The notes under the pieces: generated by a model
What the model saw: the letters and a program-made list of their open reading frames with translations, nothing else
The model's database searches: none
Told to the model about the DNA's origin: nothing
Program-made: the position numbers and the translations under genes
In this document: positions 312 through 40,251 of the stretch, one piece after another
Position numbering within the stretch: position 1 is the stretch's first letter
How the letters are laid out: each line of letters starts with the position of its first letter
Source: Takakia lepidozioides
Taxonomy: Eukaryota > Plantae > Bryophyta
Assembly: GCA_030704615.1 (NCBI GenBank)
Contig: CM060733.1
Coordinates: 15,500,001 to 15,564,000, forward strand
Length of the DNA stretch: 64,000 bases
Direction of reading: 5' to 3'

Positions 312-633
312 GTAGAGAGTGTGGGCAGATCTCGCGGAGGAGCATTGCCCAGGGTTGAATGGGGTGAAGAGCTTTGGTAGAGAGAACGTGTGTGGTGTTG
401 AGTTATGTTCACCCGAGACTTGTGCAGGGGGGATGGACATTACTAGGTATTTGAAAGCAAGTGGAGGTTCCGGTAGAGAGTGTGGGCAGATCTCGCGGAG
501 GAGCATTGCCCAGGGTTTGAATGGGGTGAAGAGCTTTGGTAGAGAGAACGTGTGTGGTGTTGAGTTATGTTCACCCGAGACTTGTGCAGGGGGGATGGAC
601 ATACTAGGTATTTGAAAGCAAGTGGAGGTTCCG
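312..633. repeat. Near-perfect tandem duplication, 2 x ~161 bp, upstream of the F-box/kelch start codon
   Basis: GTAGAGAGTGTGGGCAGATCTCGCGGAGG...GAAAGCAAGTGGAGGTTCCG occurs at ~312-472 and again at ~473-633 with few differences. Confidence 0.92.
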
Positions 634-837
634 GCCTGCTTGAGAGTCGGACTTCATTCAGCTGCCTGCGATCGTTGAGTACTTGGCCAAGAAGACTCTT
701 TTTCTGTCTAGGCTTGGTGGCGTGTTATGAGATGTGTTTTCATAGACGATTGTCGGCCAATGAGTTGTCTACAGCCGATTGGAATCTTGGTTGCTTACAG
801 GAGTGTTTTCTGACGAATCCGGGAAGTATGCTGGTAG

Positions 838-3294: not shown

Positions 3295-4743
3295 GCTCTA
3301 GCAGAGTTGGGCAACAGCTGGCTGTATAATTTATCTCATTCTTTCTTTGCCCCTTCAGCTCCCATGATTTACAAACCCAGCTGGGAGACTTTTTCGTGTC
3401 CTGCAGGATAGATGCCGCAGCTGCCATTCTTCGAGTAGAAGGCGTCTGTTGCCTTGGTCCTGAACACAAACACCTTGTGCTTGGTACTATAAGTGATGTA
3501 CCGCAATTTAGATATGGCTAATTACCGCATATTGAAAAACTGAATCTGGCAGGAACAATGTCAAACATTTCACAAGAAGTTACCCTTAAGAAGCTACACT
3601 TGGAGTTTTAAAAGTTCAGTTCATTTCTGCTGCTGCACAGTGATGCGGCGAAGGTGGCCTCCAACCTTCCTCCTTGTGCATGCTGGCAGGTTTTTGCTGT
3701 ATACTAGACTCTTTCTTCATTTTAATGGAAATTGGAAAGGTTGAACGACTTGTGACTCAGAAAACTCTGGACTCTTGAGTAAGCTGGTAGCATTCATGCA
3801 TCTATTACCAGCAAAATAGAAAGCATATGTCATCCCGGCCTCAGTAGGTCTCTTCTCTGCCATGCTCCTCCTTATTAGTTGATGTCTGGTCTGGATTCTG
3901 AACGCTTGGAAGACATTTATTCACACATGCTTCTTCCAGTAGCCATGAGGAGCTGAACGCTTGAAAGACAGTTTTTCAGACATGCTTCTTCGAGTAGCCA
4001 AGAGGAAAGTTGAGTTCTATGTAAAGGACAAAGCACTTCATCAACCTAACCTGCTTGATTGTTGGCTGACGGGTGAGCAGCCACGGTCGTTACAGACAGG
4101 CAGTTAGCAGGTTCTGTAGAATTATCAAGCTCTCCTAGTTATCAAGTTCAGAAGCTTCATCACGAACATCCGTTACGCAAACGCGCACCCCAAAGAAGAA
4201 CGCAGGCGAAGGAGACTAATTTGATACGTTCCGAACGAGCAATTTCTCACTACCTACCGTCACGAGACTTCAACCACAGCAGCGTGTGAACACCAAGGGT
4301 TTGATGGGGGGCGCCACATGAGGGGGCCGTGAAGCGAGGGAGGGCCAGCAGCCAGCGGTCTGCACACGCCCAGCGATGAACACGCTTTGCCGTATCGCCG
4401 CCACAGATTAGGGTAACTTATTTAGGGTTATTCACCACCCTAAACGAGATGCTTAAGAAACGGAGTGAGAAAAACTACCATTATGCTTCCACTCCCATTA
4501 CCAGATGATTCACAGCAAACAACACTGCTACATCAAAACGGAATGCTAATCTACCGTTAAGTGTCATTAGCGGCCCTAAGCAAGGGGGCAGAGAACAGAA
4601 TAGTAGAGAAGGCGAGGGTCAAAAGGCGCAGCGAGGGCCACGCGCTATGAGCGCGCTCTGTGTCCTTCCCTTTTCCTTCTTCCGCTCCTGCGCTGGAGCC
4701 TCTCCAGCGCTTCGGACAGCCTGGTCTGCATTGCTATGGCCGC

Positions 4744-4751: not shown

Positions 4752-5063
4752 CCCCGCATCCTGCTCAGTTAAGCACATCTTGTTCTTGTTCATCTTGTTC
4801 CTCTTCTTCTTCTTCATCCTCTCTATTTGTCCCAGACAAGGAGTTGCCTTTCATGTGTCCCGCTTGGTCTTCTTCGACTAGTTTGCCTATAAGTTTAGGC
4901 AAGTTGGAAGAGTTTCGCATGTGCTTCAACCATCGGGAGGGCTATAGGCTGCGAGTGTTTGATTTTGAGGAGTTAACGAGAGTGCATCTTTTGCACACGG
5001 CGTGTGCTGAAGGTTCTTGTTGAGAGCGGAGCGAGAGAAGAGAGAAAAGGTTGAAGAGAAAGG

Positions 5064-5987
5064 ATGGAGTGGAAGGGATTTGCTGAAGGCGGAGTTGCTG
5101 CTATGATAGCGGGATCTGTGACGCATCCGTTGGACCTGATCAAAGTCCGCATGCAGCTACAAGGGGAGGTGGCTGTGCCGGCGCTTGCGTATGCTGGCCA
5201 TGCTAGGCCGGCGGTCGCAATGGCTCGCAGTAGCCCTTTCACAGTGGGCATGAAGGTTGTGCAAACGGAGGGGCTATGTGCATTGTATTCTGGAGTGTCG
5301 GCAACTGTCTTGCGACAACTTCTCTACTCCTCAACACGAATGGGATTGTATGAGCATCTGAAGCATGAGTGGCGGGATTCTAACCAGGAAGGGACTGGCC
5401 TTCCCCTGCACAAGAAAGTGACTGCGGCGCTTGTTGCTGGTGCAGCAGGTGCTGCGGTTGGCAACCCTGCAGATCTTGCTATGGTGCGAATGCAGGCAGA
5501 TGGCAGGCTCCCTTTTCATGAAAGAAGAAACTACACTGGTGTTGGAAATGCACTGGGGCGAATGGTGAGACAGGATGGTTTGCTGTCTCTTTGGACTGGA
5601 TCTTCCCTCACCGTCCATCGCGCAATGCTAGTGACCGCAGCACAACTCGCCACTTACGACCAGATTAAAGATACGATCACTGCAAACAGACTTGTAGAGG
5701 ATAAATTTACAACACAGGTGGTGGCGAGCTGCTGTGCAGGAGTACTGGCATCAGTAGCGTCAAATCCTATCGATGTCGTCAAGACCAGGGTCATGAATAT
5801 GAAGGCGGAGCCTGGCCAAGCTCCACCATACCGGGGTGCTCTAGATTGTGCTGTGAAGACTGTGCGCTCAGAGGGTCCCATGGCATTGTACAAGGGCTTT
5901 ATCCCGACTGTCACTCGACAGGGCCCCTTTGCCATCGTTCTATTTCTCTCTTTAGAACAAATCAAGAAAGTGTTTGAGGATGTTTGA
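5064..5987 (+). CDS. DIC: Mitochondrial dicarboxylate carrier / uncoupling protein 4-5-like (SLC25 family), intronless, 307 aa
   Basis: Three carrier signatures PxDxxKxR (HPLDLIKVRMQ, NPADLAMVRMQ, NPIDVVKTRVM); plant DIC hallmarks GNPADLAMVRMQADGRLP and LYKGFIPTVTRQGPF. Confidence 0.95.
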   Translation: MEWKGFAEGGVAAMIAGSVTHPLDLIKVRMQLQGEVAVPALAYAGHARPAVAMARSSPFTVGMKVVQTEGLCALYSGVSATVLRQLLYSSTRMGLYEHLKHEWRDSNQEGTGLPLHKKVTAALVAGAAGAAVGNPADLAMVRMQADGRLPFHERRNYTGVGNALGRMVRQDGLLSLWTGSSLTVHRAMLVTAAQLATYDQIKDTITANRLVEDKFTTQVVASCCAGVLASVASNPIDVVKTRVMNMKAEPGQAPPYRGALDCAVKTVRSEGPMALYKGFIPTVTRQGPFAIVLFLSLEQIKKVFEDV

Positions 5988-7457
5988 GTTGATTTGCCAT
6001 ACGCCCAAGAACCTGTTTCAGGGCTGCAAAGCGGACCTTGATAGTATCTCTTGCAATGTGGTCGTCTCCAACATCATAGTCCTGGTTCTTCGTAGAGCCT
6101 GACGTCGAATAACTCCATTTTTGCCGGACTGTAGCCATGGTATACTCATCATTTTTCGCCCCTACTCAATGTATTGGGAGCCTACAGTAGCGTAATCTTA
6201 TTTCTCTGCCCCTCAACACAGGGGTCACCAATTTAATCTCATAATGGATTCATTCACTGTTACTTCTGGGGATTGTCGATATCGTGTGAGATTCATCTTG
6301 TGCATGTCTTCAGTTGTGATGGCCTGAATCATGAGTCCCTGCAGTGTACACCGCATTCCTCAAATTTATACTCTTTCACACAGGATATTGGCTACTACGT
6401 CTGCACACCTCTGCTAAGCCCGCGATCTAGTCCTTAATACTACATTGATAGATCTATGGTCCAGTTCGGATTACGGTAGACCTGAGAATGGCAAGAAGTC
6501 TAAGCTTGTACAGGAAGAGAAGCAGCAGCATCGTTCATTCGCAGCATAATAGCTACCAATCTCTCCTGGGTTTGATACATGTCCTGATTCCATGTCTCCG
6601 CAGAGCCTTTCCTCTTCGTGAAGGTTCCCGACAAGATATGAGAGGATTTGGTTTGACGACACAGCTGGGACCATCTTCCCCCATCCCATTTGACTCCAGT
6701 GTAGGTTTATCTCTCAGCACTTACCCTGTCCTGGAACTCTCTTGATCTCATGCAAACAAGCTTAATGTTTTCGAAGTGCATAATGAAGTCGCCAATGACG
6801 GCTTTCGTCAATAAAAGACATAGAAGAAGAAGACCTTTTCCTCCGCTGCCTTCAAGTGTTCCAGTGGGGCTAGGAGCTTCTGGTCAACCAGAATGTTTCC
6901 AGTCTTCAGGTGTGGAAGGCAGAAGAGTGGGCCCAGGCCCCACACACAGCCTTCTACTGCGTATATGCGGACACTTGGAAGGAAAGCAACTATTGAAATT
7001 GACACACGCTCTACTTTGTGTGGGATCAGCTTCTTCTTCTGCGATCCCCCGAGTGTTGTAAAGATCGGGTGACTTGATTCAGGTATTCTGAATTAGTATT
7101 TGGTTTGTGGGCTTTCTATTTTCTACATCTCTGTCTTCATAGGTTTCAACGTTCTTTTGTCCCAGATTCCAAACTCTGACTTCCCCTTTGTACTGAGCTA
7201 CTGCATTTGGATTCCCATCTCGCTATTTCTGCGATTACATCGGTCATTCTCGCCATAGTATATTTTCCGTAAGCTTTCTCTCTATATGCTCTCCCAGCCG
7301 AATCAATTTTTTTCCCTCAAAATCGCTGGTTTCACGATCTCTTGGTATGCGCGGGTCTCCAACTTCTAGACTGTCTGACTGAAATTCTTGATAGAATCTT
7401 ACAGCCCGATTACCCGTCTGCAGCTCTATCTCCCTCTCTTATAACGTTATAAAGCAC

Positions 7458-13626: not shown

Positions 13627-14850
13627 TTTTTTTTTTTTTTTTTTGTTTTTTTCCGGAGAACGAGGGGATTGTAGCCCTGAAAACTTTATTAAAAGGAGGT
13701 AAGGAAAAAATAACCTTACAAAGAGCCATAAGGCGGAGTAACAAGGTTCCACTCAAAGCCAAAAAAACCAAAGTCTAAGAAGAGAGACTAAGAATAAGAA
13801 CTTCAGAGCCAGAGTGCTGTTGAAATAAGAAGACTAACCTGCAGAGAACAGCTGCAGCAAGGAACTGCAGCCAGCTAGACGGCCAAGGCTTGAGAACTAA
13901 TAAGGTTCAAGCAAACAACAAGAAAGCAACAGACTACAAACTACCCCTTTTACGCTTTGGAGCATCGAAGGAAAGTTGAGTCTTTGATCTGTATTTCCTA
14001 GAAGTACGCCGCTTGTGCCTCCAGTTAATCTCTAAATCCCTCCGAAAGAGAGGGCTTCGAAAGTAGTAGTGCTGCCAACAAGAAGGGAGAGTGTCTGTCC
14101 ACACAACCCTAGAGTCTGATACTCTTCTGCCAAAGATGTTGTTTTTTCCCCATGTGTTGTCAAATGAGGTAAGTAGTTGGTCTCTACTTGATTGACTACA
14201 CCTGGGAAGAATTGTCACAATAACAAGCCACGACTTGCGAGCTTCAGACACTAGGTCTGAATTAGCCCTATACAACACTTTCTGTAAACATGGTTTCACA
14301 TTTTGAAAGATCACCGCACGTGGCATCTTCCAGATATTCCAAAAAATGACCCCTCTTAAAGGTTCTCACACATGGCATGAGCATAAAGAACTTCCCCCTT
14401 TACAATTCAGCAACAGTGCAGAAGTGGAGTAATTGAGATTGGGATTCCAGAAAGAATTCAAGATGAATGTTTTCCTCCAAACAGATTGAGCGAAAGGGTA
14501 ATCCACCAAGCAATGCTCCAAAGTTTCAAGAGACTGCAGATTGCAGGAAGCACAAGCATCAAATGAATCAGAGAACATAGAGGCCACCGGAAGGATTCCA
14601 TTAGCAACCTTCCACAAAAGGCAGTCACTTTGGAAGACAAATGTCAGCCCACACCGCCTTCCAAGCAATAGGAGGACCAAGGAGATGAGCCCACTTGTTG
14701 TTCCACTTATCATCAAATCTTTTCTTTGGGGCAACAACAAAGAGTAGCCCAACTTAACCGAGTATTTGAAAAACTCATGTTTGTGTTTATTTGTATTCAA
14801 ATTTATTATAACTGGAAAGAAAACCAGATGGCACAAGAGGGTTGTAGCAA
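13627..14850 (-). mobile_element. Degraded L1-type LINE 3' end
   Basis: zf-RVT-like CASCNLQSLETLEHCLVDYPFAQSVW in ORF 14366..14836, followed by a WNIW-type segment. The poly-T at 13627-13652 is a poly-A tail on the minus strand. Confidence 0.7.
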
Positions 14851-15199
14851 GCCTGGTATGAGTACATGTGCATTTGTGTTTTGGGTCTGGGGTTCATCAA
14901 TCCCATATGTGCGCCTTGGCTGGAGCTCTGTCCCTTATGTGCCTCCATGGATCAAAAAGAGATTTAATTTTTCCTCTCAAGGCCCAGTGGCTTGGATTTC
15001 CTTGGTGAGAAATCGTTTGATATATGTATTGCTACAGAATCTCTTGACATTGTCCATGTTTGGGGGCCTTAGGGTGCACACCCTTCATGTTCAGCACCAA
15101 GGAAGAAGCGGAGTGTATTTCCGCAGAAGAGCACCCTTAACCGCGGTAACAAGTTGGACGACATAATAAAAGGATGTGGTCATTCCCACCTGAAAGCAA

Positions 15200-15575
15200 C
15201 AGATGAATGCGGGATGGATGAATGTAGCGTGGATAAAACATTGATGGACGGGTGCGAACAATGCAAGTACATGGATGAAATAGAGATGGATGAGATTACA
15301 ATGGATGAATGTATGATTGATGAATGTACAATGGATGTTGAATAATGGAAAACATTCATGAATGGAGGATGCATTCATATACAGTACATGAATGCACAAT
15401 GTATATGACATGAGTGTGTGGGGTTTGTAAGATGGATTCGAGAGTGCAGTGGATGAATGTACAATGGATGTTGAATAATGGAAAACATTTATAAATGGAG
15501 GATGCATGAATACAGTGTAGATGAATGCACAATGGATTTGACATGAGGTTGTGGTGTTTGTGGGATGGATTCATG
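15200..15575. repeat. Degenerate ATGGATGAAT-type tandem repeats with an internal ~135-bp duplication
   Basis: Repeated ATGGATGAATGTA / GGATGAATGTACAATGGATGTTGAATAATGGAAAACATT units at ~15318 and ~15452. Confidence 0.75.
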
Positions 15576-16059
15576 AAGATTGTAATTTCATTCTGAATGG
15601 ATTCTTTGTTCTTTTTTCTTTCTGCCGAAACATCTGCAATAAAGTAGGGGAATTCAATCTTTTACGAAGAGGATGAGAACTGAACATTAAAAATGCGTAG
15701 TTCAGTCTGACTCGGAGTCAGTACAATGTATCCCCGCGTCCTCTGCATCCAAGTCCAAGTATTTTAGAACTCCGGATCTACGATGGCTACACCTGCGGTC
15801 GGGCAATAAAAAGTCAGGGGAGAGAGCCTCGGCCATTTGAAGTGCCATTGCTTCGGCATACACAGGAAGCACAAAAGTGGAAAGGGGGCTGTCGAAAACA
15901 GTCTCGCCACAAATGGGGGTGTCTCCTGAAGATCCACCGCTACCTTTCCTGCAAGTCACAGCAAGAAAAACGTTATTACTGCAAATTTGATGTCTGCGAT
16001 TGAAAAGGGCACCCAAAGTGGAATGACAATTCCATTGCAGACTTACTCACATGAAAAAT

Positions 16060-19000
16060 CGTTGTGGACCTGCTTATCCTCGTGATCCTCATCATTTCGG
16101 ATTTGAATCGTTTCAGTTTGTGTGCCTGATGTAGAGCCAGACAAAAGGGGGAGGAGTACAGTCTTGTATAGGTCAGAGTCACCCTCCATGCCAAAAAAAG
16201 ATCTTCTGCCTGCCTTGCATGCATGGTAAGTTTCTCCTGCAACAGACAGGAGGACATGAACAGTTTGTAGAGGGGGATTTAACGAAGATGAAAATGGTGA
16301 AAGAAAACCAAATCTGAATGGAGAAAACGAACCTGTGGATATCGAGAGGTCAACCACCCGTGCAGAATGGTGGCTGCATGACTCCAGCAGTGTCTGCATG
16401 AACACTGGGGTTTTCTCCTTTGCACCTCTCCAAGGAGTGCCATCTGGTCTTTTGAGAGTCTGACTGGGCTGCATGAAGTTGTACAAAATGTCATCGACAT
16501 GCGGCTCATACGGGGAATTATGAAACACCCTTGGTTAGAAATCTCGAAACTGTGGACGGAGGATGGTGTCTTTGAGGTGCGAATCCTCCGCAGGCAGCAT
16601 CGCCTCGAACATCCTCGTGTGCGAAAAACTGAAGGTTAGGGTGCGAAACATAAACAACAGTGGAATTTTGTAGATTGGCACTTCAAAACATAGGCATGCA
16701 ACAAACTGATCAGTCAAATATTTTTGATGATCGGTGCCGATCATCACAGATTATTGTAGAGTTACGTTGTAGAATACATTGAAATAAAGCAACAAATCAC
16801 ACCTAAGAGGGAGGCGTCATACCAGTTGACCAGAATAACCCCCTTTTACAAGGTAGAGGATGTTCACACAATTCCATGTGCGCAGAATTTCAAACCCAGT
16901 GGACTTCAGGTACGATGCCAATGCCTGACGACTATCCTTGTCACATGACTGAAAGAGTAGAAGTGTCCCTGCATCAGAAAGGAAATAGTTGCAGAACCCG
17001 AACACCCAACTCCAGTAGTTGTCATCGAATTTGTTCCAGTTTGGCATCTTGCCCTTCGGAAGAACTTCTGGCACAGCCTGGCCGTCCGGGATGTCAAGAA
17101 TGACCATGTCTGCAGCAAACGTTTTGTGCACACCGCACACGAAGGAAGGACCAGTGCTCACCTGCGACGGACATGTTCAATTTGAGAACGAAGATAAGAA
17201 TGATTGCAAAGAAACAAATACCAATACTGCCAATGTCACCTACGAATGCAAAAGAAAGAAAGTTAAATTCCCACCAGATTAAGGAATGAGATCATGTTAT
17301 CCCAAGTAGGCGAAGGCACCCCAGTATATCCTTTCTTCCGACTCTCCATCATCGCCAGCCATCCCTCATTGACAATCTTAATCTCCCCTGCCAAATCAGC
17401 ACGGGAAAGGTGTGGCCTGGCATCGAACACGCACTGAATTGTGCAGGTATACCTTCCGGCGGTGAAGTCCTTCTCACTCTCTTTCTCTTCTCCTTTTATT
17501 TCTCCTTCCCCTTCTCATTTTCCTTCTCCTTCTCCTTCTCCTTCGACTTGTCTTTGTTTTTTGTCTTTGCTGGTGACTTGGCTGTGCCATCTGGAGCCTT
17601 GTCTTTGGGTTTGCGCCCATCCTTCTTGCCTTTCTGGGTTATTTCCTGCGCGTCAGGCTCCTTGGCAGCCAGTGCTGCTATGTTTCTTTGGTACCAGTAC
17701 TCCTCATCGTTCAGAGGTGCCAGCATCTCAGCGTGATTCTTCAAATATTTCATTTGCTGCTCCTGAAAAGTCGTGTGGTCAGGAGGGCAGTCCAGGTACC
17801 AACCACAGTCCCTGAAGTGTGCAGGACTCCAGTCCTTCAATATCCCTGCAGTATACATGGTTGGATCGTTTCCTGGGTCTGACCACATATCAAGATAATT
17901 TGGGACACCACTGAGGTGATTCCATCCATTAGCACATATTTTGTGTACCTGCAAACCACGAGGCAAATTGGAAATCAATCTCTCTATGCAGAAGCCCATT
18001 GTTCTCAAAGTGAATGTCAGCACCGACATTCAGAAAATTCGTGAGAGTAACAGTGCATACAACTATTGGGCACCCTAGAAAACGTACAAGAAATCTCTCG
18101 GTATAGAAGCTCACAATAGCTTTGGATGTGATGGTCATCAACGACATTCACAAAATTCCATTCAAGAATACTGCCAACACATCCTAAGTTCCCTAATCCA
18201 TATGAATGACATAGGAGCTCACAGCCATGGAAGTGAATGTCGGCACCGACATTCACTTCCTATCAGTAATGAACCCTTCTAACAACGCCTAAGGATTTCT
18301 CACAAGATGCAACATAGTTGCTAGTTGGAAATGCACCTGTACACAACTCGCATCATGGCCCACTCCCCCCCAACCTGACTGTCAAAGTCGTTGGACCGCA
18401 AAATGTTACCATCCTTCGAAAACTCCTGGAAAAAACAGTATCGCCAAGTGAGACCTCTCCACTTCCTGATGTATGCTTCCAATGTCATTTGAGGCGGGGA
18501 AACAATAGAAATATTCAAGTCCTTCAAATTCTGCTCGAGGACAAGGATGGCACGCTTCTCCAGCTGCAAAGGGTACATTTGTCAGTTTTGCAAATAAGGT
18601 AGTCATTACATTCATGAAGTCAACAAAGATGAAACTTCAATGAATACACACCTGACTCCAAAATGTAGCCTTGTGAACCAGTTGTCAAACACAATGTCAC
18701 TGATTCCCTCCACCTTTGTGCCAGGCTGTATAGTGCTTTTAGGGAACTGATTCAAGTCCTTCACTGTCTGATCTGAGTTCCAAATCTCCAACCATCTAAT
18801 TTTGGTCTTGGGGTCAACCATGGAGATGGCCAGCCGGTGCAATTTCTCCTGCTGCATCTCCGGGTGCACATGCTTGTCATAGTGAGATTTGATCTGCAGA
18901 AGGAACTCCTCTCCAAGGCCATGATCTACTACTCTAAGCTGCTTAGAGAAGGCGGACATCAGTTTGGTTCTCCGGATTTCGTACTCCTTCTTTATTGCTG

Positions 19001-21504
19001 CCTCCACACCCTTTGATGTCATAAGTTCCTCTGTTGTAGTGCGGTAGTATTCGGATTTCCCCTTCTCAGCTGCCTCTGCCAGTTCTTGCTGCATTAATCA
19101 AAGTAGGGATGAGTAAAAACAAATTACAAACATGTATTCAAAAAGACAAGTGAGTACAGGCTCGGCCTTACCGCATACATGTACTCCAGAAACGCCTCTC
19201 GAGTCAAAGAATAACAAGTGTCTGCAGTTCTTCTTGTTTCGTACTTCTTGATTATATCGGGGTGGAGTACTGTGCGAAAATCATCCAGCTTCATCAGACC
19301 AATCCTCTGAATTCGGAAAAGTGTGTGGACCAAGTTTGTTGTCACATGCGATTTCTCTGTCGATCTGCAAAAAGAATGGAAACAATGCATTGGTAAACAT
19401 CGTTTTTTGGTGGGATGAACAAGACATTGAAGAGGCAATGGAGTCTCTAGGATGACTTACTTGTTTACGTCATACATAGCTGTAAGAAGCCTAGCGATGT
19501 CGTTTCCAGGATCCAGAACCATTGCCTCTACAACAACATGCTTGTCTTTGTCTTTTGAATGATGTTTTTGAATGTATCCCATCCATGCCAACAATCGGTG
19601 GTTGCCGTCCCAAACGTAGAACATGTGGTTGCAAAATTACTGGGTGTTTCTTCCCATCATGAGGCCCAGCTCGAACTTCTCATTAACATCTTTCCAGCAC
19701 TCATCCCAGGTATCGGTGATCTCAGGAGACACTAATGTGCTTTTCCCATTTGTATCCGTCAGTGACACATAAAAAACTTGTGCACCAAGTCTGTATCCAT
19801 GCACGAAATCAGTTTCCAAATTTGTAATGTCATGGGAAAGTGGAGGACGCACAACAGGCATAGATATCATCCGGCATAGTGGGATGTCAAGACGCCCTCC
19901 AGAGATGAGCATGTCCCTAATAACCTCCTGAGAGTTTACCTTCTGGAATGACATGAGTTCTTTCACCTTGTCAACATAGTGCACTTCATGTTCATTTGTT
20001 TCATCGCTATTCTCCGAGCTCTTGGCAGACTCGTCCACATCTCCAGAACCTTTTGCCTCTGTTCCTGTCAGCTTGGACTTCACAGTTTTCTGCACGATGC
20101 CATGCCAATCAGACACTCAGTTATGTGCAAATAGTGAATGTCGATACCGACCATCAGTCTGTCTTGTCTCAAATCACAGTGGATGGCGGCATCGACATTC
20201 ACAACCATCTACACTAACAAAGTTGAGACAGACGAATGCAAATCAAAACACTATGACTGCATAGTGATTGTCGGTACCGACCATCACTCTGTTTCTGGGC
20301 AAGCAGGTACAGAAAGGTTCTGAGCATTAGCGAATGGCGTTAACGACAATAAAAAAACATTACACTCGAAAGACTGACAAGATCGGTTTGGTGCAAAGAA
20401 ATATATCTCATAGTGATTGGCGGCACCGACACTCACTTTAGTTTGTAACAGAAAGTGAGTGGAATGCACATTGTCTGAAATGCAAGAAGTCTATATTTTC
20501 AAAAGGAATATGATTGACGTTAATCAGAGAGACTCCATTGTGATGGTCGTTAAAGACAATCATTATTTCTTGTCTCTTTGGAATGTACTTTGCAACTGTT
20601 TTTAGACATGAAGCTACAGGTGGTCTCAAGAAAAGTGATTGGCGGTACCGCCATTCCTCTTCTCTAGTTTGTTCAACCTAAAACAGAGAAAATGCAATGC
20701 AAAACAATATGACTGAATAGTGATGGTCGGTGCCGACCATCACTCTCTCTCCACGCATGCAGGTACAGGAAGCTCATGAGGAGAATTGAAGGGCGTTAAC
20801 GACACTCACACTACACTAGAATGGAAAACATTGCGTTTGGTGCAAGTCAATACTGGATCATAGTTACTGTCGGCACCGACACTCATTTTCTTTTGTATAA
20901 GAATGTGAGTTTTGAAATGAAAGAGAATGACGTTGCTTACAATCACAGGTTCCGGCTACAGAAAGAAAGAGAAAGAGTGTTGGAAAGGCAATCAGACTGA
21001 CTCTATGATCTGAAGAACAGTGAATGGCGGTATCGCCAGTCACCCTAAATTAGTATGGAAATCCTGAAACAGAGGAATACAAAGCAAATCAACACAACTT
21101 CATAGTGATGGTTGGTACTGACCATCACTTTCTAGGACATTTCACTCACTCACTTTGTACATCTGTAAACAGGAAATGGAAGGGTGGAGAACACTTACTG
21201 GCGCCTTCTTCGGTTTTGAGTTTGGATCCCCTTCTGCAGCTTTCCTCTTCCCCTTCACATCTGTCAGAATTCATGTCTGGTCTAGGGTTTGTAGACCTTC
21301 TCCCCGTTCTGCGTTTAGCGGACTTCCACCTCCTTCAGTTTCCTTGCGAATCATCTCTGCTTCCACGGTCTGGTTTCCAACGCTCACTGTTCTCTCTCGT
21401 TGTGTGACAGTTGCAGCCTCATTCTCGGTCTGCTCTTGTGTTGCAGTCTCCGCGTTCACCTGCTGCCGTGGCCCTGTGTTCTCCATCAAACGACGCCTCG
21501 TCAT
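16060..21504 (-). pseudogene. Multi-exon gene: ParB/Srx-like N-terminal domain, helical region, Lys-rich linker, beta-class N4C/N6A DNA-methyltransferase-like domain. Disrupted by premature stops.
   Basis: Exon 1 21504..21199 (GTAAGT donor); exon 2 20089..19461 contains VRPP...FYVWDGNHRLLAW (ParB/Srx GxxR motif at 19595-19612). Later exons give ADMVILDIPD (motif IV-like, 17084-17095) before EKTPVFMQTLLE...VVDLSISTG|ETYHACKAGRRSFFGMEGDSDLY (motifs X-I-II), which is the permuted beta order. In-frame stops at 21271, 19637 and 16535. Confidence 0.75.
16725..21129. repeat. Dispersed array of 12 ~26-bp palindromes, consensus AGTGAwTGTCGGyrCCGACAyTCACT
   Basis: Copies at 16725, 18009, 18229 (32-bp GGAAGTGAATGTCGG-CA-CCGACATTCACTTCC), 20133, 20178, 20263, 20412, 20634, 20719, 20862, 21019 and 21104. 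All fall in inferred introns. Confidence 0.9.
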
Positions 21505-22534
21505 TTGCTCTCTTGCTCTGAGTCTCTCTCTAAGGGAAGTAAAATAAAGTGATTTCCTTCTCTTTCGTATCGTAGAAGGAACCCTCTCTAGCTTGACTAC
21601 CTCTCTCCCTCTAAGTGCAGAAACAAGAAAGACAAAGTGACTCTCGATTTCTTGCGGAGTTGCGTGCGTTAGGGATTGTCTCTAGAAACATCGGATTCCC
21701 TCTCGCGTGACCGTTACACCAATGTCATTCCCTTATTAGTGCACCTGCCAGCCATTAGTGGACAGCTGTTCGTCTGCAATGTAGTTATCGAAGTCTGACG
21801 TGTGTCGCCCAAAATGAACGGCGTGTCGTTTATTTGAAGGGTTTCAATAATTGAATATAACAGCGACAGATATTATAAATTCATGAATATAACATTGCAA
21901 ATAAACAATTAGTTGGTCTGACTGCTCCTAGAAAATTATCTGGAATATGTCTATGTTGAAACTATGGGGCCATCTGGCGCACAAACTCAGATCTTGCCTA
22001 TGCCATCATAACCATGGCACCATGGAATAAAAAATATGGGGCCATCTGGCGCACAATCTCAGACAAATATATGTAAGTAAACGAGTATTTGTTGACAAAT
22101 TTTTGGATATCATACACATTCATCCTTGTAAGCCCACCCCACGTTCGTTTCAAAGTTTGGACTTTCCAGGTGCGCATGATCAATGACTGTTATTAAAGAT
22201 GCATTTACCACCCTCAGATCCTTTGGCACACTTCTGAGAAGTCGGCTGGTTATTATGTTAATTGATGACGTTCTGAATAAAGGTTTAACAGCTATCGAAA
22301 TTGCTCCTAGGGATACTCCGTCTACGGTTTCCACAAAAAAAGTAATTAAAATGGACGGCGGCATGTCGGGAAGAGCTTGTCAGAGGCAAGGAATAACAGA
22401 ATGTGCACAATCATCGTGTGTACTTCCTCCGTGATATTCTCTGCTCATGCTTCACCAGTGTTTTGGAGACCTCAGTCAACAGATTTCACTGAAGAGCTGC
22501 GATAGCAAGGGAACTTCGTACGAGAGGAGGCAAG

Positions 22535-25500
22535 ATGGCTTCCTCTGAAGCGGAGTTCTTCTCTGATGAGAAACCAGTGCCGTTCTCCAAGGAAGCCCTT
22601 GCCAATGGGTTCGCTGTTGTTCTCAAACATGTCTTGGCGACCCGGTTTGAGCTATAAAATGGGACAATTTTCTTGGAAAGAGAAATTTACGGTTCAGACG
22701 GGAAGTTGTTAAAATACTCCTTCCAGAACCGTGATGAGACAGCTCTGGTCAGACAGTGGAGAGTTCACCCTGGAAGATACAGGGTCCTTGGGGAGCCTCG
22801 ATGAAAGTCCCTTGGATCATAAGTCACTCCAGGAACATCTGCTTCTGTGGTTCAAGACAAAATGGACTTTTTAGTGAAAAGAGAGGAAACATCCTCCACT
22901 CCCATCGTTGAGCTTTCGGATTCATCAAATGATGACATTATTGAAATCACTACTGACGTGCATCCTCTTGTAGTTGTGCAAGACGATGTTCAGGAGATCT
23001 CCAATGTCATTCCAAAACTACGGTCAATGGGGGGGATGCCCGGTTTCAAAAGTGAGTTGCAGGGAATTCGTTGGGACACTTTTAATATTGTTCCTGTGAA
23101 ATATCTTCCAGAGACGTTGGATGGGGATATTCTTTTCGAGCTCCCTCCTCCTCCTCATGTTGGAGGTATCTCAAGCCTGATGCATGGTATGGACAAGAGA
23201 CACGATGGACACCCATGGTGTAGGACGAAAACGTCAAATATTCAAAATCAAGACAAACTCATCTTCAGGAGGACAGTTTGCAATGGGCACCTCAGGTGCA
23301 AAAATTTCAATTGTAGACACTTTCTTCAATCGGGGATTCACAACCAGAGCGAGTGGTAGGGTATCGCTGAAAATCCATTTAAGCCGGGGGCGGCTCCTTC
23401 GCGGATGGACACTTTCGTTTGCAAATTTTGTAAGCTTGTCCCATCCTGCCTGGCGGTGTGTGGTGCAAGAATGTACTACGTGGTGCACCGTTTGAAAACT
23501 ATGACTCGAGCTTGTGTGCATTTCGGATTTCATAACCATCCAGTCTCAAAGGGCGATTACAGGGAAAGTCTTGAGACAGTGTCGAGGTTGATTAAACAAG
23601 AGTACGAGAGCAACACATCCGCAACCACATCTGCAATTGCTCTTGCCGCAAGCAAGAGCTTCTTGGATAGCCATATTTTCTGTGCAGTGGATTCTGTGGG
23701 AAGTAAACTTGATGGACCAGCATTGGACATTGTCATGGACCATTTTTCAACATTGAGTTCACCCAACATTCGCCATCAGGTGAATGCATTGAGAATGCGC
23801 TTTGGAAATAGAGGCTACATTGACAACATTCTGGAATTGAAAAGAATGAGCAAGTACGACTACATACAGGACAGTGTGTTTCCAAGGCAAGGAACGACAA
23901 AAGTATATCTTTTCAAAATGTCCACAACCGGGGAGGGCAGCAGGATAAGCCTCGTCAGACGAATGCAGAAGAGTGGTGATCTTGAGAAATATTTTCTTAT
24001 GTTTGATCACGTCAAACCGGTGAAAGATTGGACGACTATGGCTTGTCATGTGTACAATCCTATTTACCAGCGAGTTATGACAATTGCAGTTTGTGACATG
24101 CAATCGGAGGATTCGGAATCCCAGCAGCTAATGTGAAAATCTCTGATTCGTGTTATGGGGTGCCATGGTGTCCTTGCTCCGAATTTTGCTGGTTTCATGG
24201 CAGATAGTGCATAGGCGAATTTCACTGCTGTGCGGATTATCTTCGGATCGGGGGACCCAAAGGTGCCAATGGAGGGAAGAAAGCATACATGTCTGTTCCA
24301 TTGGACCCAATCTCTGGAGAAACATATGAAAGCGGATATCAAACCTGAGATGTAGATACAACATCGTAAGTTGTGCAAAGAATACAAAGATGCCAAATCA
24401 ATGGCGGAGGCGAATACATTGTTCCAGACAATTCGTGCCTGGTGGTTCTCTTCAAGAGCAGCATCGCTTGACAGTATGAGAGCGTTGGAAGATTGGTTGG
24501 CGTTTTGGCAGTTCCGGTACAGGCAGTAGGGAGCATCCATGACAACGGTACGTATCTAGTATTGCATGCATTTTCTATATTTTTTCGGGGTGCAGATCTG
24601 CATTTGCTTGGGTGGTGTTGTAACCTCTTTGGTATTCTGAAGTGTGTTTTTCACTTTGCAGAACATGTCCATTGAGGAAATGACAGACATGCCATCTTGC
24701 AATTTGACAGAGACAGTGCACAACGCATGGTTGCAACAGTCTGGGAAACGGGTCGGGATTTGTATGTGGCAACAACAGATGATCTCATACGTGCACTCCA
24801 ACAACAAACCAGATATCGTGACTTCTTGAGAGGAGGCGTTGGTGGGAAGGGTCCGGACAAACAAGAGTTGTTGTTGCGTGCTGCAAGCAGATCAGGGGAT
24901 CCAAGCAAGATAGCACGAGCGGTCGACATGTGTTCCAAAGGAACGCCTCTTGTGTCTAGAGTTCCACATCTGGAAGGGAAGGAGAGATTTGGCTCCTGCA
25001 AGAGGAAATTAAACACCCCTCCTGATTCGGATTCCGATTTGCATAGGGCAGACTGTGATAACTTCTCCACGCCTCGTGTCCCTCTGCATGAGAGATATAT
25101 ATCCGGACCATCCCTTCTTGAGGAACCTGCGACAGGAGGGCAGACTCCAACATATAACAACCCCATTGCAATGGTGCAAGAGATAAAGTTACTCCCTGAT
25201 ATTGTGGAGTCCATATGCCCCGACCACATTTGGCACATAGAGCGCACAAGTGCAAGGTCTCGTGTCAAATGTACGGCGATCAAAGCAACCAAATCTGACA
25301 AATGCACTTCTTCCATATCCAGAGGTGGTGCCCGCACTCCAGCTCCAACTTTCACTGGTTTAATGCGCCCGTATGGGCAGCCAGAAGCCAAGAACCACAA
25401 GTTATGGTTATGTGCATATGATTGTGGGAGATGTGTGCATGGAACTGTGCGACCTTCTGTGGTGATGAAGCCAAGTCCACCAGCTGTTTGGCCCGTGAAG

Positions 25501-26043
25501 TTGGGAACAAATCTCACAAATCAAAAGATTGCAATGCTGGAAGAGGCAGGGTTTTCCCTTGCAAGACAACCCCGTGTGCGTGCACCTACTTCCAGTTCTG
25601 GGAATACAAGGGTCCCTCTGATAGATGCTCATTTGTGGCCAACAAAACGAAATGGAAAACTTGTTCGGCGTTTCTCTCCAACTGCAGAACACTTCGGCAA
25701 GGTGGAGTCCGCTAGATTGCTCCAAGCTCGTGTTTCCAGCACGACAGAGGTGCTCGATCCTGGGTATGGTCGGGTGTACACAATGATCACCTCGACATCT
25801 GCTATTCACGATAGGGCGTATGACATCACTGTTTCCAATTTCCCCAATTGCACATGTCCTGATTTTGTTGGGATGCTATCAACTAGTTTGGGCAAGAGAG
25901 GTACATTCGTACCCTGCAAACATTTGTACTTCATCTTCATAAAGAGGATGGTTTGTGATCCCAAACGTGACAACTTCATTCACCAGGCGACAATGAGTTT
26001 CAACGAGATCAGTACTCTCTTGCAACGAGATACAAGCACATAG
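22535..26043 (+). mobile_element. Mutator-like (MULE) transposase pseudogene: GCM/WRKY-like Zn domain, DDE, Cys-rich region, SWIM
   Basis: DGHPW...CNGHLRCKNFNC...CKFC...CGARMYYV...HFGFHNHP (GCM-like). FLMFDH, FMADSA, CLFHW (CxxH) and NLTETVHN fit a MULE DDE core. CTCPDF...CKH is a SWIM finger. One GT-AG intron at ~24548-24661. Several in-frame stops (23357, 24134, ~24212, ~24352, ~24527). Confidence 0.82.
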
Positions 26044-27961
26044 GTAGATGACTTGCTGTTTCTAGAATGTGGTGAAAGTTCAATCCGGTATCGCAAATCT
26101 GAATTCAGGTTGGTTCCGACTGTGAGTATGCAAAGGGTACAACCATGATGTGTAATGTGTAGTTGGAACATTGTCACTACCAAACATTTCAATTCAATAG
26201 CAGCATTCGTGAGGTTGTTGAATGATATGGCAGACCTTCTCTCTCCATTATGGTTCCAATTGTGTAATATGTGTGCTCTCTTTGGCAATTTTATGGAGTT
26301 CATGCATCATTGGTTCTGTGGGTGTCTACATGTGCTTCTTCCAATGTTATCCAAATTGTCAATGTTATTTGGGGAGAGTCAGGGTGTTCCTATGTCGTCA
26401 TGTACGCCACTGAATTTGTGAGGTTAGTTTGTCGTCCTAGTAATTGCAAAATTGTCAATGAGTCAAGATGTGAATGCTCCCGAGTTATATTGAATCGAAC
26501 TCAACGACTTATGTATCATCATCAAATAGTTTATAAATATGCACCCCTTCCCGCATCATTTGCTCACCTATGTGCCACACCCATGTTGGGCATGATATCC
26601 TACAATCGTCATATTCCAGGTAATATTTCAGCTTTTGATAATGTCACTACTTATCACATTTATATCATCCTCTCTACGCGGGTACATGGAGGTTACATAT
26701 CCCAACGTCAGCATGAGCATACTTACCAGTTTCTTTTTTACAAAGCTGGCACAGGATGGGTACAGTGCAATCAAGCAGTGGTTGCCCAACACTCAAGGAA
26801 CCATGAAGAAGCTAGTTGCACTTGAAGTTTGACTGTTAGGGGCCTCAACTACATAGAACTTTATGGTCATCATGACACACTTACCCAACTAATCGGAGAT
26901 GGGTGCTGTGGGTTTTTTGAAGATGTGATCAATGGTAACACAACTCTCTGTATTTTAGGGGTGCACACGAATCCTAGTGCACCATGGGGTTACAAGAGCC
27001 TAGTATTTCTCCAGTGGTACAAGAGTTCATTGTTGTCACCAGTTTTGGGAGGGACGATAATCTCTCAATCTAACTATTTGTCGTTATTTTGAATGTAGTT
27101 ATCATTGGAGCCTGGTTGTCATCAACTTCAAATCAGCTTAAACGCTACACTTGAACTCTTTGAAGAAGAGTCACATGGACATCGATGACCCCATCAAAAA
27201 GTAAGTCTCTACGATGACCTATGTGAGACCCCAAGGATTTCACCCAATCATATGCATGTTTGGATGAGAGGCGCTCTATGCAAAGCAGCCTCCATACTGG
27301 TTCCTATAATCTGAAAGATTGGCACGGGATTAGAATGAGTGTTGGAATCAGTAAAGTGTCTTCGCTTAGGGCAGCAGTTATTTCAGTAACAACTTGGGAA
27401 GTAACTATTGTTTCATGTTCTTTGAGCATCTCAACCTAAATGGATTCTTGATATTTGGCATTTGTTCATGAGATATATGTTTGTTTACAACTCATTTGTT
27501 ATACAATATCCAATAAAATATCGATAGTCTCTCGGCCCCAACATTTTGTTGATTTTAATTGTAATAGATGTAAAAAATAATTCATATAAAAAATCAAATA
27601 ATATTTTATATAAAAATAACAATAGCTAATCACAATCATAATAAAATGATAAAGCGGTGATGTTGGGGTATTTGAAGGACCTTATGAGGACTAGAGTGCA
27701 ATTCACTTGTGAATCTGCAAAAACAATTTATGTCCATTACTAATTTTTGTTTATCTTGCATGCAAAATGCAAACATTCCAACAAATAATCTCCAATTATA
27801 TGAAGAACGACTATTTGTTAGCTCATAATTCAATAATATTTCTAAAACTAAACCTACGCACAACATGGATGTGGCCCGTGGATAACACATTCTATGCATT
27901 GGCATGTGGGTCTGGATTGATCAAACCCTGGTGTGATGTCTCTATCTGACTCTGAGCCAGG

Positions 27962-30021: not shown

Positions 30022-33000
30022 ACTAGTGGCTGCACTAGTGGTGGCTAATGGCAGCCTAGTGTTGGACTAGAGGCTGCACTAGTGGTGACTAGTGGTTGTC
30101 CAGTGGCAGCCTAGTGGTGCACTAGTGTTTGGTGTGCACATATGTTGTGTGGTTTGGACAGCGATGTAGTTGTGTAGCGATATGTATGCGCACGACAATT
30201 GTCAAGTTATTTTACCACTAGTGTGAAACTAGCTAGGAAATAGCTAGCTTCTATATATTGACATTTGGGATTGACCCAAGTGTCAATCCAGGGGCCAATA
30301 CATGTTTGGGCACCTGGCGTTGTTATCTTCACGGCAGATCGCGGTGGGCTCATCTTTCTCGAGTTGAGCCTCACCGCGCCTAGCTATGGCGCCGTCGTGT
30401 GGATTCCCCATGGTGTGGGGTGCACTTGGCTTGACTTGTATTTGAGTGATGAGGTTATATATGCATGAGTTTATGCTTCAGCTTTGTGAGCTCGCATGAG
30501 CTTGTGCTTGTATTCTTCTTCAGATCAAGAGGCCGGGTGCAAGAGTTGCCCCATCGTTAGTCGCCGTCTTGCAACCTGTGAACTTGAGCTTGGGATCTCG
30601 TGTATTGACTCCTATGAGATTGGCCTCCCATGTCTTGTTAGCTGCCTCCAGTCGTGTCCACTACCACTATCCCAAGCAATGTGGACACAACCAATCTCCG
30701 TCATGAACCTTCTCAAGAGGTGGTGTCAAGCATCCCATATGCCAACCCCTTGAGCATCGATCACACACCAGCATGGTGGCTGCCCCTTTGGCAGACCCAC
30801 AGAGCATGCACCTCAAACCTGCAAGTACCACTGCCAAGTTTGGGTCAACTCTGCCATCGACATTGGGAAGGTGACATGGCGCACAATTACGCACATGGTC
30901 CTTCCAAGTCATGTCATCCCGACCCTCCAAGATCAAGACCCCTGAGGGCAACACCTCTCGAACCCTCAGAATAACATGCCCTGCAGTAACATCCAGAGTC
31001 GTAGGAGCAGTCTGCTGCAAATAAACATAGTCACCAGGGCTAAACCTCCGAACCCCAGGACGATATCCTCCACCACGTATAGTGACATACCTCAACGTAT
31101 CACGGTACTGTGCAATGGCAAGGTTCTCAAAAGCCATGGGCATGATTTTCTTGAACAACTCTGCACGCTGATCACATGCACGTACCCACACGTCCAGATC
31201 GTCAAGGTTAAGGACTTGAGCAGTGTCCCTACGAATGGCTGCAGGCAAATCCGGCTCTCGGCCAAAGAGAAGGAAATATGGTGAGAAGGAGGCAAGTGAT
31301 GCTTGTTTGCTGAACATGTAGCCTATGGCTAACCAAGGAACCTGAAGATCCCAATCTCCTAGGTGTCCCTTCTGCAAACCATACTTGCGCAAACCCCTCT
31401 TCACCGTCTGCACCACTCTCTCTGCCAAGCCATCGGCCTTAGGATGATCCCGATAAGTGGTATGGTGGTCTATCAAGGCTTTATCACACAAAGCTTGAAA
31501 CTCCCCCAAGAACTCTCTCCCTTGGTCCGTGAGTACCTCAGCTGGAGCACCAAATCGGCTAAGCACACGATCCAAGAATGCATACGCAGCCCCCTCACTA
31601 GCCTTGTTAGGCAATGGAACCAACTCAGTCCACTTGGAGAAGTGCTCCACCATCACCAATACATATCTGTGGTGGCGCACAGTCAGTGGCAACGGTCCTG
31701 CGAAGTCAAGACTCCACCTGTAGCCCAATCCCATGATTGGTAAAGGATGCAACTGTTGTGTAGGGGCGTTGAATGAAGCACGAACCCTGTCACACACCAT
31801 GCACCTAGTCACAAACTGTTGCACCTCTGTATGCATACCACGCCACCAATACTGCCCCTGCAGTAAATTGTGAGTGCGTCGCACTCCAAAATGCCCCAAC
31901 TCCTCATGGGCATGCCGCACTAACCGTGCACGCTGTGTGGGGTGAGGCACAATCCTCACCCGACCATCCTCCCACACTCGAAGTAGGTGTATCCCCTCCC
32001 ACTTGAACCTCTTGGCTCGTTGCAGGATCCGATCCCTCTCCCTGGCAGTCACAGTGGTTGCCGTGTCTCCCGTGCGGAGGTAGTCCAACACAGCCGAATC
32101 CTCATGTATATCTCTGGCACCACCTAGCTCAGCACTAGCCTCAGGGTCCTCAGACACTCCGTCTACAGTCATCCATGTTGTAGGTCCAACCTGACCTCCC
32201 GATGCCAAGATACACAAAAATGCAGATGCGTGCCATCCCGGCACCATCTCCTCGTCCGTCTCACCATGCCACCGAGCTCCGGTGTCATCCTGCTGGCTCG
32301 TGCATGGATTGCGACTCAATCCATCCGCATCCCGATTGACCAAACCCGGTCGATGCATAACCTGAAAGTCATACTCCTGGAGTATGAGTGCCCACCGTGC
32401 AAGCTTCCCCCTAAGCTTGTCTGACTCCATCAACCACTTGAGTGGCTGGTGATCCGTGACAAGGGTGAAAAGATTGTCGGATAGATAGCACTTGAAGTGT
32501 GTCACGGCCCACACTGCAGCTAAGCACTCTCCCTCATATGAGCTGTACTTAGCCTCTGCAGCGTTGTTCGAGCGGCTAGCATAAGCTACTACGAACTCTC
32601 TTCCCTCATCATCTCAGGATAGGCGCCGAGGTCAACCTCGCCTTGAGCTCTTGAAAAGCTCGTTCCTGCTCATCTTCCCACTGCCACTCCTAGTCCACCT
32701 TGGTCAACTTGGTTAGAGCCTTTGCAATGGTACTAAATCCCTTGACAAACCGTCTATAATAGTTTGCCAACCCCATGAAAGCTCGAACTCGGCTCACATC
32801 CGTAGGGCGTGGAATTTGTGCAATGGCCTCTACCTTAGTCTGCTGTACCCCCAATCCTCCAGGATATATCATGTGACACAGATACTCAATCTGGTTGTGG
32901 AAAAACTTGCACTTCCCCGAATGCATCTTCAATCTGTGCGCTCTCAAGCGCTCCAATACCACCTGAAGGTGTCTCTCATGCTCCTCTACCGTAACACTAA

Positions 33001-34726
33001 AGATGATGATGTCATCTATGTAGCACCGAGCAAAGTCCACCCCTGCTAGAATCCTATCCATGACTCTCTAAAACTCTGCAGGAGCACTCTTAAGCCCAAA
33101 TGGTAAGAACCGCCACTGATATAGGCAATCCTTGCCGTGCTCATTGATCCCCCAGAATGCCGTCTTCTACTTGTCCGCCTCCTTGATTGGCAACTGGTGA
33201 TATCCGGATCGTAAATCCAAAGTGCTAAAGACCTTAGCATGCCCGATGGCATCAAAGATCTCCTTTGGTGTTGGCATGGCATACTTATCGGACTTGGTCT
33301 GACGATTTACAAGGCCGGTAATCACCGCACATACGTCTCTCCGTCCAATTGCCATAGACATCTTTCTTGGTTGGCATCACTGTGGCTGAAGCATACTCTC
33401 CACCAGAGAGCTCCACCAAACCTGCCTCCCAGAGATCTTGAGTCCTCATCTGAATCAAAGACCTTTCCATGTCAATGTATCTATAGGGTCTCCGAAAGAT
33501 TGGCGTGTCAGTGGCCAACTCAATACGGATCTCTTGACCCTTCAGTGCTCCCAAGTCCTTCAAACTGAAGGCAAAGCAATTCCTGTAAGCCCTCAGGAAC
33601 CGCCGTATACGTCGTCTCTCTCCTCCGGTGACAATGGGTCCAATGTCAGGCTCCCAATTGTCCTCCGTAACTGCAACCTTAAGTCCAGTGGGCGTAGAGG
33701 TAGAGGACGCGTCCAGTGGTTGTTATGTTGCAACCTCTTGAGTAGTACTCCCTACCTGCTCAGTCAGTGACAAGGCCTCATCCTGCCCCATCGTCTCATC
33801 CTCAAGGACTTCCTCCACCCGAGAAAAATCCCTAGCCTCATCCATCACCGCCACCTTGGCTGCCAACTCCCTCTGAACCTCAAGCACCTCCCACGTGTGC
33901 CATGGATGCCTGCACCCCGTGGTCCTCACATGCTTGCCCCCACTCACTGCATGTACCGTCTTAGTAGGCATAGAGACCATCGAGGGAAGTGTACTCCGCA
34001 CTTTGCGTTGCTCAGCCATAGCCAAGCTGATAATCCAGGTCAAGCAATAGAGATCCATTGCTTGCCCCAACACCTGACGATGTGATGCCTCAGAAAGAGA
34101 CGACACCGCCGTGGTACTAGTGGTAAAACCCATTACCCGCTCACGCTCGTCAACATTAGGCTCCACTAACTGCTGCAACTGAGCATCCCACAGGAGGCCA
34201 GGTCCACTATCCTGGAAAGCATGCGATCCTGGGAAGCTGAGCAGTGTAGGTAATGCTGCTCGTGGTTGACCCACCTTGTTTACCACTGCCAAAGGCGAAC
34301 GGTCATCGTGTCTCACACGCTGAGACTGCCTCCCTGTGTCCAGAATGCTATCCACTGTGAGATGTGCTGGCCGCTGCACCCTATCAAATGCACGCTTGAG
34401 CAGTGCGGGTGGCATCAAGTTAGTCCACCATAGCCGTGGACGATGAGCCCGTGACCCCACTGTAGCTGCATCTAGCAACACTGTTGATCCAAGCCACGAT
34501 CGGACTTGATGCACACTGGCCATCACCCTGGCCCGAGAATCGCCCATCAATGGCACATTCTCCAAGATGTATGCTGGAGATACAGCTTGATGAAGCTGCA
34601 AGTGGCGCAAAACCCGCACCATCTCCCAAAACAGACCCGACCTCGAATCTCGGAATCCATTGTCATGCCCGGCTGATGAATGCCCTTGGCAGGGCCAACC
34701 TGCCACTACCAGATCAATGGAGCCAA
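30022..34726 (-). mobile_element. Ty3/Gypsy element with C5-DNA-methyltransferase, copy A (5'-truncated): DNMT C-terminal part, RT, RNase H (partly deleted), integrase, PHD
   Basis: DLVVAGWPCQGHS, ENV and RPRLWW (33723..34799); RT LDLRSGYHQ and YIDDII; integrase HHCC, LDFAGPLP, TDQGREF, GLAER; PHD CMLC...[17 protein letters not shown]...WLCPHC (30667..32514). Confidence 0.92.
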
Positions 34727-39362: not shown

Positions 39363-39410
39363 TGGCCCTCAAAGACTTAGAGGGACCTAAGCGCCAGCTA
39401 GGGGGGCGAT

Positions 39411-40104: not shown

Positions 40105-40251
<147 letters not shown>

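Follow-up and report, generated by a model that had tools for sequence, protein, structure and literature searches.

Intronic palindromes in a moss transposon as candidate binding sites for its own ParB-like accessory protein

A 64,000-nucleotide stretch of the genome of the moss Takakia lepidozioides (GenBank assembly GCA_030704615.1, contig CM060733.1, positions 15,500,001 to 15,564,000; hereafter the window, with positions counted from its first base) contains a multi-copy transposable element in which two broken genes lie head to head: a transposase-like gene on the plus strand and, on the minus strand, an accessory gene for a predicted protein with a ParB-like and a methyltransferase-like domain. 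The introns predicted for the accessory gene hold an array of palindromes, which we propose to be binding sites for the accessory protein itself. The element spans both genes (15500-26460); its right end maps to about 26430-26460 and its left end lies below 15500. Contigs from three public DNA runs cover both genes at very high summed depth, which drops to the single-copy level beyond about 26.45 kb. In run X1, 9,282 contigs gave summed depths of 5e3-2.8e5 per bin inside the element versus 66-74 beyond 26.7 kb, figures that do not represent copy number. With the right end mapped and the left end not, neither terminal inverted repeats nor a target duplication rose above shuffles, and only chance-level 8-mers were seen. 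The transposase-like gene (22823-26043) encodes an N-terminal Cys/His cluster, acidic motifs and a C-terminal SWIM-like finger, and we take its acidic and Cys/His motifs to resemble those of Mutator-like elements (MULEs), which have a DDE transposase with a SWIM finger and make target duplications of 8-10 bp, whether or not they end in terminal inverted repeats. A Pfam scan of the window exons and their homologues gave no MULE match for this gene, and its SWIM match (E 0.0033, 17.4 bits) lies below the cut-off of 19.6. SWIM fingers are described as common in MULE groups (PMC6446971). Between the two genes lies a 33-bp direct repeat (21959-21991 and 22031-22063, 94% identity), of which variant family contigs lack one unit. 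Repeats rich in ATGGATGAATG, including a 133-bp duplication, occupy 15197-15572 and are possibly subterminal repeats of the element.

We predicted the exon-intron structure of the accessory gene from splice signals and protein homology. Exon 1 (21199-21504) contains one in-frame stop and has no homology support. Intron 1 (20090-21198), which is in frame and bounded by GT..AG, separates it from exon 2 (19461-20089), where a predicted ParB/Srx-fold domain with a WDGNHRL motif is interrupted by an in-frame stop at 19637-19639. Exons 3-6 (19172-19364, 18652-19088, 18337-18552 and about 17478-17948) encode a conserved middle region, predicted to be all-helical, and then a lysine-rich linker. The remaining predicted exons (within 16046-17160) encode a circularly permuted amino-methyltransferase-like domain, in which motif IV (DIPD) precedes motif I (VVDLSISTG). 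A profile search recovered a full-length homologue of 1,147 amino acids from Ceratodon purpureus. The window exons align in order with the Ceratodon protein, which backs most of the introns, whereas intron 1 was placed solely from splice signals. Stops break the window copy, as does, relative to family contigs, one extra base at 16598. Run X7, which we guess to be RNA, yielded 19 contigs, 17 of them below 90% identity, and is uninformative on expression or splicing.

Seventeen copies of a dyad-symmetric motif of about 26 bp are present in the window, all of them in predicted introns of the accessory gene. Thirteen lie in intron 1, each 26 bp long, starting at 20133, 20178, 20263, 20329, 20412, 20539, 20634, 20719, 20785, 20862, 20922, 21019 and 21104, with start-to-start spacings of 45, 85, 66, 83, 127, 95, 85, 66, 77, 60, 97 and 85 bp and a consensus of approximately AGTGAWTGTCGGYRCCGACAWTCACT. 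Three more (18009, 18127 and 18232) occupy a predicted minus-strand intron at 17949-18336 whose flanking exons match Ceratodon P0159, and a single copy (16723-16748) lies in a predicted intron (donor 16822, extending to about 16680) by which the methyltransferase-like domain is interrupted. An earlier note made from this DNA alone had listed twelve palindromes. All twelve are in the sequence, ten of them at the starts given, whereas the dyad-centred starts of the other two shift from 16725 to 16723 and from 18229 to 18232; five copies had been overlooked (18127, 20329, 20539, 20785 and the decayed 20922), so that the array placed correctly in intron 1 has 13 copies rather than nine. The claim that the motif is confined to introns held for all 17 copies in both of our scans, and outside the gene neither a symmetric position weight matrix (PWM) nor a degenerate consensus at up to 4 mismatches found any copy in the 64 kb. 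The consensus, itself derived from these copies, recovers exactly the 17 window sites at this setting. By PWM, 16 sites score 15.2-40.4 bits and copy 20922 scores 8.8, compared with 8.6 bits for the best extragenic site and maxima of 7.3-17.0 in 20 Markov shuffles; because the shuffle maxima reach 17.0, copies 20329 and 20922 are not above the null by score alone. Four copies (18127, 20329, 20539 and 20785) share a symmetric change of the core from GGYRCC to GTYRAC. The central two bases are YR in all 16 scored copies (TA in 8, CA in 6 and TG in 2) and never CG. Several intron 1 palindromes overlap at their left edge with a further weak dyad, ACTATG-N4-CATAGT (for example at 20251-20266). An Rfam search gave no match.

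Intron 1 was partly built by internal duplication, as the earlier note had supposed: it aligns with itself at an offset of about 456 bp with 76% identity. The palindromes were indeed better kept than the spacers, motif and spacer identities being 84% and 69%, 86% and 70%, and 84% and 61% in three duplicated blocks (Fisher p = 0.01, 0.035 and 0.005; the blocks overlap and are not independent). The observed/expected ratio of CpG is 1.13 in the motifs versus 0.29 in the intron 1 spacers, and the main duplicated block has kept 8 of its 9 motif CpGs but none of the 4 in its spacers (p 0.007). Across the 16 scored copies, the flanking CpGs of the motif are mostly kept, unlike the central dinucleotide. 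Paired changes that preserve the dyad, also proposed in that note, are weakly favoured by left-right matching (134 versus 125 +/- 3.7, p 0.015, with non-independent copies), whereas in many copies the two half-sites are unlike. Several family contigs depart from the window copy at 12 motif positions, and at 10 of these the contigs have the better-paired base (40 of 52 rows). Family contigs also skip and step back between palindromes, for example from 20381 to 20831 and from 21108 to 21056, which indicates that array size varies among copies of the element.

To place the array in a wider family, we examined metagenome relatives of the accessory gene, taking the best 80 of 121 confirmed loci, which gave 39 clusters after de-duplication. 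Eight of these were excluded for having less than 1 kb upstream, leaving 31 non-redundant clusters in which an array was called if it lay 0.2-2.2 kb upstream of the ParB exon and scored at least twice the best of 8 shuffles. A de novo search found that 20 of the 31 relatives carry a palindrome array of their own at the equivalent position, and one further locus (L065) fell just short of the threshold. The motifs themselves differ. They include CCAACTTTYRRYRYYRAAAGTTGG (L014, L045 and L072), GSTTCTYTYRRYRYYRARAGAASC (L022 and L079), RCTACTYTYRRCGYYRARAGTAGY (L029 and L044), TCCATATGYRTYRAYRCATATGGA (L016), TRTGAARAACCYRGGTTYTTCAYA (L033 and L043) and AGSRTTCGGCGCCGAAYSCT (L007). The PWM of the window found only 3 chance-level matches in the relatives' 424 kb, so the exact motif of the window is subfamily-specific. 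As in the window, a second, downstream non-coding cluster repeats the element's own motif in L008, L014 and L072. None of 170 sites in the relatives falls in a coding match, a result that is partly by construction because the motifs were learned upstream. The accessory and transposase-like genes are linked head to head in 6 of the 39 clusters, many contigs being too short to show linkage. AT-rich AACCATGGTT arrays in L005 and L057 may be separate repeats, although L057 was kept among the 20 positives. Likewise, the more than 30 tandem units of 25 bp in an intron of L008 (about 4840-6130) may be a separate repeat. In L002, the matched exons (122-3756) are free of internal stops and form a candidate intact accessory gene, on a contig without the upstream intron.

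A shared CG-rich core resembling TCGGCGCCGA, with CG-to-TG/CA decay, persists in many relatives, and the flanks differ by subfamily. Elements that share this core have 30-50% protein identity, and after motif masking their upstream DNA is alignable in only 14 of 210 element pairs. Mismatches between half-sites, read on the sense strand, comprise 4 G·T and 7 A·C in the window and 408 G·T and 432 A·C in 20 relatives. These strand-symmetric types fit selection at the level of DNA rather than RNA wobble pairing.

We next consider the predicted protein. Searches with exon 2 found 529 relatives at E <=0.001 among representatives at 50% identity, and those with names among ten looked up are Adiantum ferns. 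One homologue, P0002, which is 55% identical to exon 2, has a confident fold model (predicted local distance difference test (pLDDT) 88). All Foldseek matches listed for this model are ParB/Noc/Srx-fold chains, none of them reaching E 0.001. In VIA, the best match is KorB (Z 7.9, root-mean-square deviation 2.5 over 90 residues), followed by PadC (Z 7.3), and sulfiredoxin and free serine kinase score near KorB (Z 6.4). The model supports a ParB/Srx-fold N-terminal domain in the accessory family. The middle region of the Ceratodon homologue is modelled as all-helical (pLDDT 74); it gave no informative structural or profile match and no helix-turn-helix (HTH) was identified in it, which does not show that the fold is new. 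At the C terminus, residues 903-1119 of Ceratodon P0159 match PF01555 with 30.4 bits against a cut-off of 26.7, the window exons align with this protein around its motif I end, and an Atlas lead (0.90) points to clusters with 56% PF01555. By sequence comparison, a PF01555 methyltransferase-like domain with motif IV before motif I is supported for the family. Pfam detected neither domain in single window exons, word-based searches with single exons found no relatives, and viruses and prokaryotes yielded only short or weak matches rather than a close relative.

The array occupies non-coding sequence beside the region between the head-to-head genes, recurs in subfamily-specific form and is conserved over its spacers. 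These data support the conclusion that the palindromes behave as sites under selection in non-coding, double-stranded DNA, with a sequence that varies from one subfamily to another. We consider it probable, judging from sequence comparison, that the accessory protein of the element, with its ParB-like and methyltransferase-like domains, binds them and that they likely serve anti-silencing; the anti-silencing outcome, taken alone, falls somewhat short of probable. In such a mechanism, a dimer of the accessory protein would bind the dyad sites clustered beside the region between the two genes. Each protomer might read one half-site of 11-12 bp, leaving the central YR unread, and duplication within introns would multiply the sites. 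Subfamily-specific flanks would confine the effect to the element's own copies, likely keeping these open to expression, and the methyltransferase fold would more likely serve DNA binding or dimerisation than catalysis. The self-recognition module put forward in the earlier note, in which the protein loads at the palindromes, spreads and then modifies or protects, finds support in the ParB/Srx fold, the PF01555-like domain and the selected, subfamily-specific sites, whereas ParB-style loading and spreading and the modification step are both weakened.

The weakening comes from motifs of the protein and is among several points that weigh against our reading. ParB proteins have a Box I of ELxxSIxxxGxxxP and a Box II of GERRxRA (PMC10653881). 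Box II in this family is GNHR, not GERR, in 62 of 150 matches and GxRR-like in 1 of 150, with 51 fragments giving no match, and its first arginine is not kept; the Box I serine is not conserved, the family reading L-x-x-x-F-x-x-GY instead. These motifs do not support a parS-like CTP (cytidine triphosphate) clamp, and searches of the middle region identified no HTH. Canonical amino-methyltransferases carry the catalytic motif (D/N/S)PP(Y/F/W). Motif IV in the accessory family follows D-[IV]-P-[D/E/R/S], without the aromatic residue, in the window and at every metagenome locus where it is readable (DIPD in the window, DIPE in L002, DVPR in L020 and L022, DIPS in L067 and DVPS in L072), whereas the aromatic position is intact in Ceratodon (DTPF) and in ferns (DLPF/DVPF). 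A catalytic methylation step in this lineage thus looks doubtful. The palindromes themselves also raise objections. Decay has removed the central CG from each of the 16 scored window copies, and in relatives the cores likewise carry CG-to-TG/CA changes, so that if the sites were ever protected from methylation, the protection did not last. The two smaller duplicated blocks kept only 2 of 4 motif CpGs each. Eleven of the 31 relatives fall below the array threshold, and most loci are badly decayed. Many relatives, among them L020, L027, L029, L033, L036, L039, L043 and L044, carry upstream of the ParB exon a second, AAGCTT-centred palindrome class, RRACYYRAGCTYRAGCTYRRGTYY, interleaved with the first, which makes a second reader possible. 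The earlier note had proposed testing whether related subfamilies carry different palindromes that co-vary with the protein. Motifs do differ by clade, with the nearest protein having the nearest motif in 11 of 21 cases (Mantel rho 0.36, p 0.016, for a motif class chosen by eye from two per locus). However, linkage alone predicts this: since motif and gene are physically linked, a motif that tracks the protein tree reflects shared descent, not co-evolution. A stronger point is the persistence of the core where flanking DNA no longer aligns. The core pattern TYRRYRYYRA reaches 2.46 per kb upstream compared with 0.44 per kb in other sequence, and 17 of 21 elements have it upstream, although the pattern was derived from the same motifs in which it was then counted.

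Other readers or origins of the palindromes can be envisaged. The best surviving alternative, which we nonetheless judge improbable, is that they are sites for the transposase-like protein, through which it would activate or organise copies of its own element. From the main array, it is about 1.6-2.7 kb to the first open reading frame of the transposase-like gene, whose product has the N-terminal Cys/His cluster, and the AtMu1 transposase is reported to activate in a sequence-specific manner (10.64898/2026.08.24.746577). However, the palindromes lie inside the accessory gene and not at the mapped right end, and a similar array stands beside a ParB gene in another element even though its transposase is unrelated. 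L038 retains the transposase, at a distance of about 730 bp from its ParB exon, but shows no array; this fits deletion and so does not discriminate. We give still less weight, and equal weight, to two further possibilities. One is a neutral by-product, arising by tandem duplication with template switching at the palindrome or from a tiny mobile repeat that landed in introns; the duplications in intron 1 and the skips and back-steps in other family members speak for it. Against this, the motifs outlast their spacers, the same motif occurs in separate introns, a core is shared by unalignable introns of distant elements, and intron 1 contigs run into unlike sequence in only 2% of cases in X1 (19% in X3 and 43% in X5). 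The other is an intronic enhancer bound by a host transcription factor. First introns often contain regulatory sites and the core is shared across subfamilies, but the sites are 24-26 bp long, their flanks change by subfamily among elements from similar kinds of assemblies, and no copy lies near host genes in the window. Least probable are pre-mRNA hairpins that affect splicing or yield small RNAs, an alternative the earlier note had raised: intron 1, read on the sense strand, folds more stably than shuffled sequence (z -8.6), as expected of any palindrome array, and left-right matching is slightly in excess, but the mismatches show no G·U bias, many are non-wobble, half-sites are mixed, and primary sequence is conserved beyond pairing across distant elements.

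Our favoured reading, self-binding by the accessory protein, has precedents in algae. PAG3 of Plavaka elements in the red alga Bostrychia (bioRxiv 10.1101/2025.02.11.637652) is likewise the accessory gene of a transposon, encodes a ParB-like domain at its N terminus and adjoins inverted-repeat arrays; its authors propose that the product binds and modifies its own element. It differs in that the second domain is a 2-oxoglutarate oxygenase, the methylase is encoded by a separate gene (PAG2), the host element is EnSpm/Plavaka and the arrays are tandem and adjacent rather than dispersed within introns; the main text portions available contain no subfamily comparison. Because these arrays accompany a ParB accessory gene beside an unrelated transposase, the ParB gene emerges as the common partner of the arrays. 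In the brown alga Ectocarpus, the accessory protein of Sola1-1_Ec32 (PMC12477816), to which we liken ours by description, fuses a ParB-like domain to an N4C/N6A methyltransferase domain in about 1,100 amino acids, is encoded opposite the transposase and is proposed to bind and modify its own element. Here the transposase is of the Sola type, and the string 'palindrom' is absent from the main text of that paper. A ParB-like and DNA-modifier-like gene opposite a transposase, as in the window and 6 relative clusters, matches this algal accessory layout. Chlorophytes are described as having ParB-HTH fused to a different methyltransferase group (Iyer et al. 2016, PMC4738411).

VANC and VANDAL elements of Arabidopsis (PMC5735166) also pair a Mutator-type element with an accessory protein, and their motifs are intronic or otherwise non-coding, multiplied by duplication and family-specific. 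VANC motifs measure 8-9 bp, the text available does not call them palindromic, and VANC binding and demethylation were shown experimentally. Pfam scans of the window exons and homologues revealed no VANC-like domain, a direct comparison with VANC not having been made. Bacterial ParB with parS, KorB and VirB (PMC10653881) likewise combine a ParB-type N-terminal fold with dyad-symmetric DNA sites, and VirB of Shigella is a ParB relative that acts as an anti-silencer. The Takakia family differs from these in its Box I and Box II CTP residues, in having no HTH identified and in its fused methyltransferase fold. The idea of a self-binding ParB accessory protein is thus already in print, as a proposal, for red and brown algal transposons, and what is new here is the land-plant setting, the intronic arrays and the subfamily-specific sites; no description of such elements or arrays in mosses or ferns was found in the literature searched (few subscription journals, and main texts without supplements).

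A broader possibility, which we advance only tentatively and think unlikely to hold in full, is that non-seed land plants harbour a large transposon clade with a modular code for self-recognition: the ParB-derived protein of every subfamily would recognise and load onto a 24-26 bp palindrome specific to that subfamily and would counter host silencing of the subfamily's copies. It would do so with a modified nucleotide pocket and with a methyltransferase fold that is atypical or not catalytic. If this is true, plants would have, besides VANC and independently of it, a second anti-silencing system with sequence specificity, one of bacterial origin. Self-binding, if true, would also provide a natural set of proteins that bind long and distinct DNA targets. 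Candidate sites are now available for about 20 elements in several motif classes, which makes specificity testable by swapping protein and site, and the lineage includes a tractable moss model with a full-length homologue (Ceratodon).

The rest of the window contains other repeats. Just left of the element, a weak zf-RVT match (14369-14893, E 3e-4, below cut-off) probably marks a long interspersed nuclear element fragment. Two Ty3/Gypsy-like retrotransposon copies lie on the minus strand at 30667-47137 (for example 33723-34844 and 43572-44273), which encode PF00145, the C5 cytosine methyltransferase domain (E 3e-14 and 4e-13), together with a PHD finger after the integrase, and one of them is interrupted by a plus-strand retroelement at about 34466-36630. 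At 47675-48537, a low-complexity short-period repeat gives long open reading frames in three frames.

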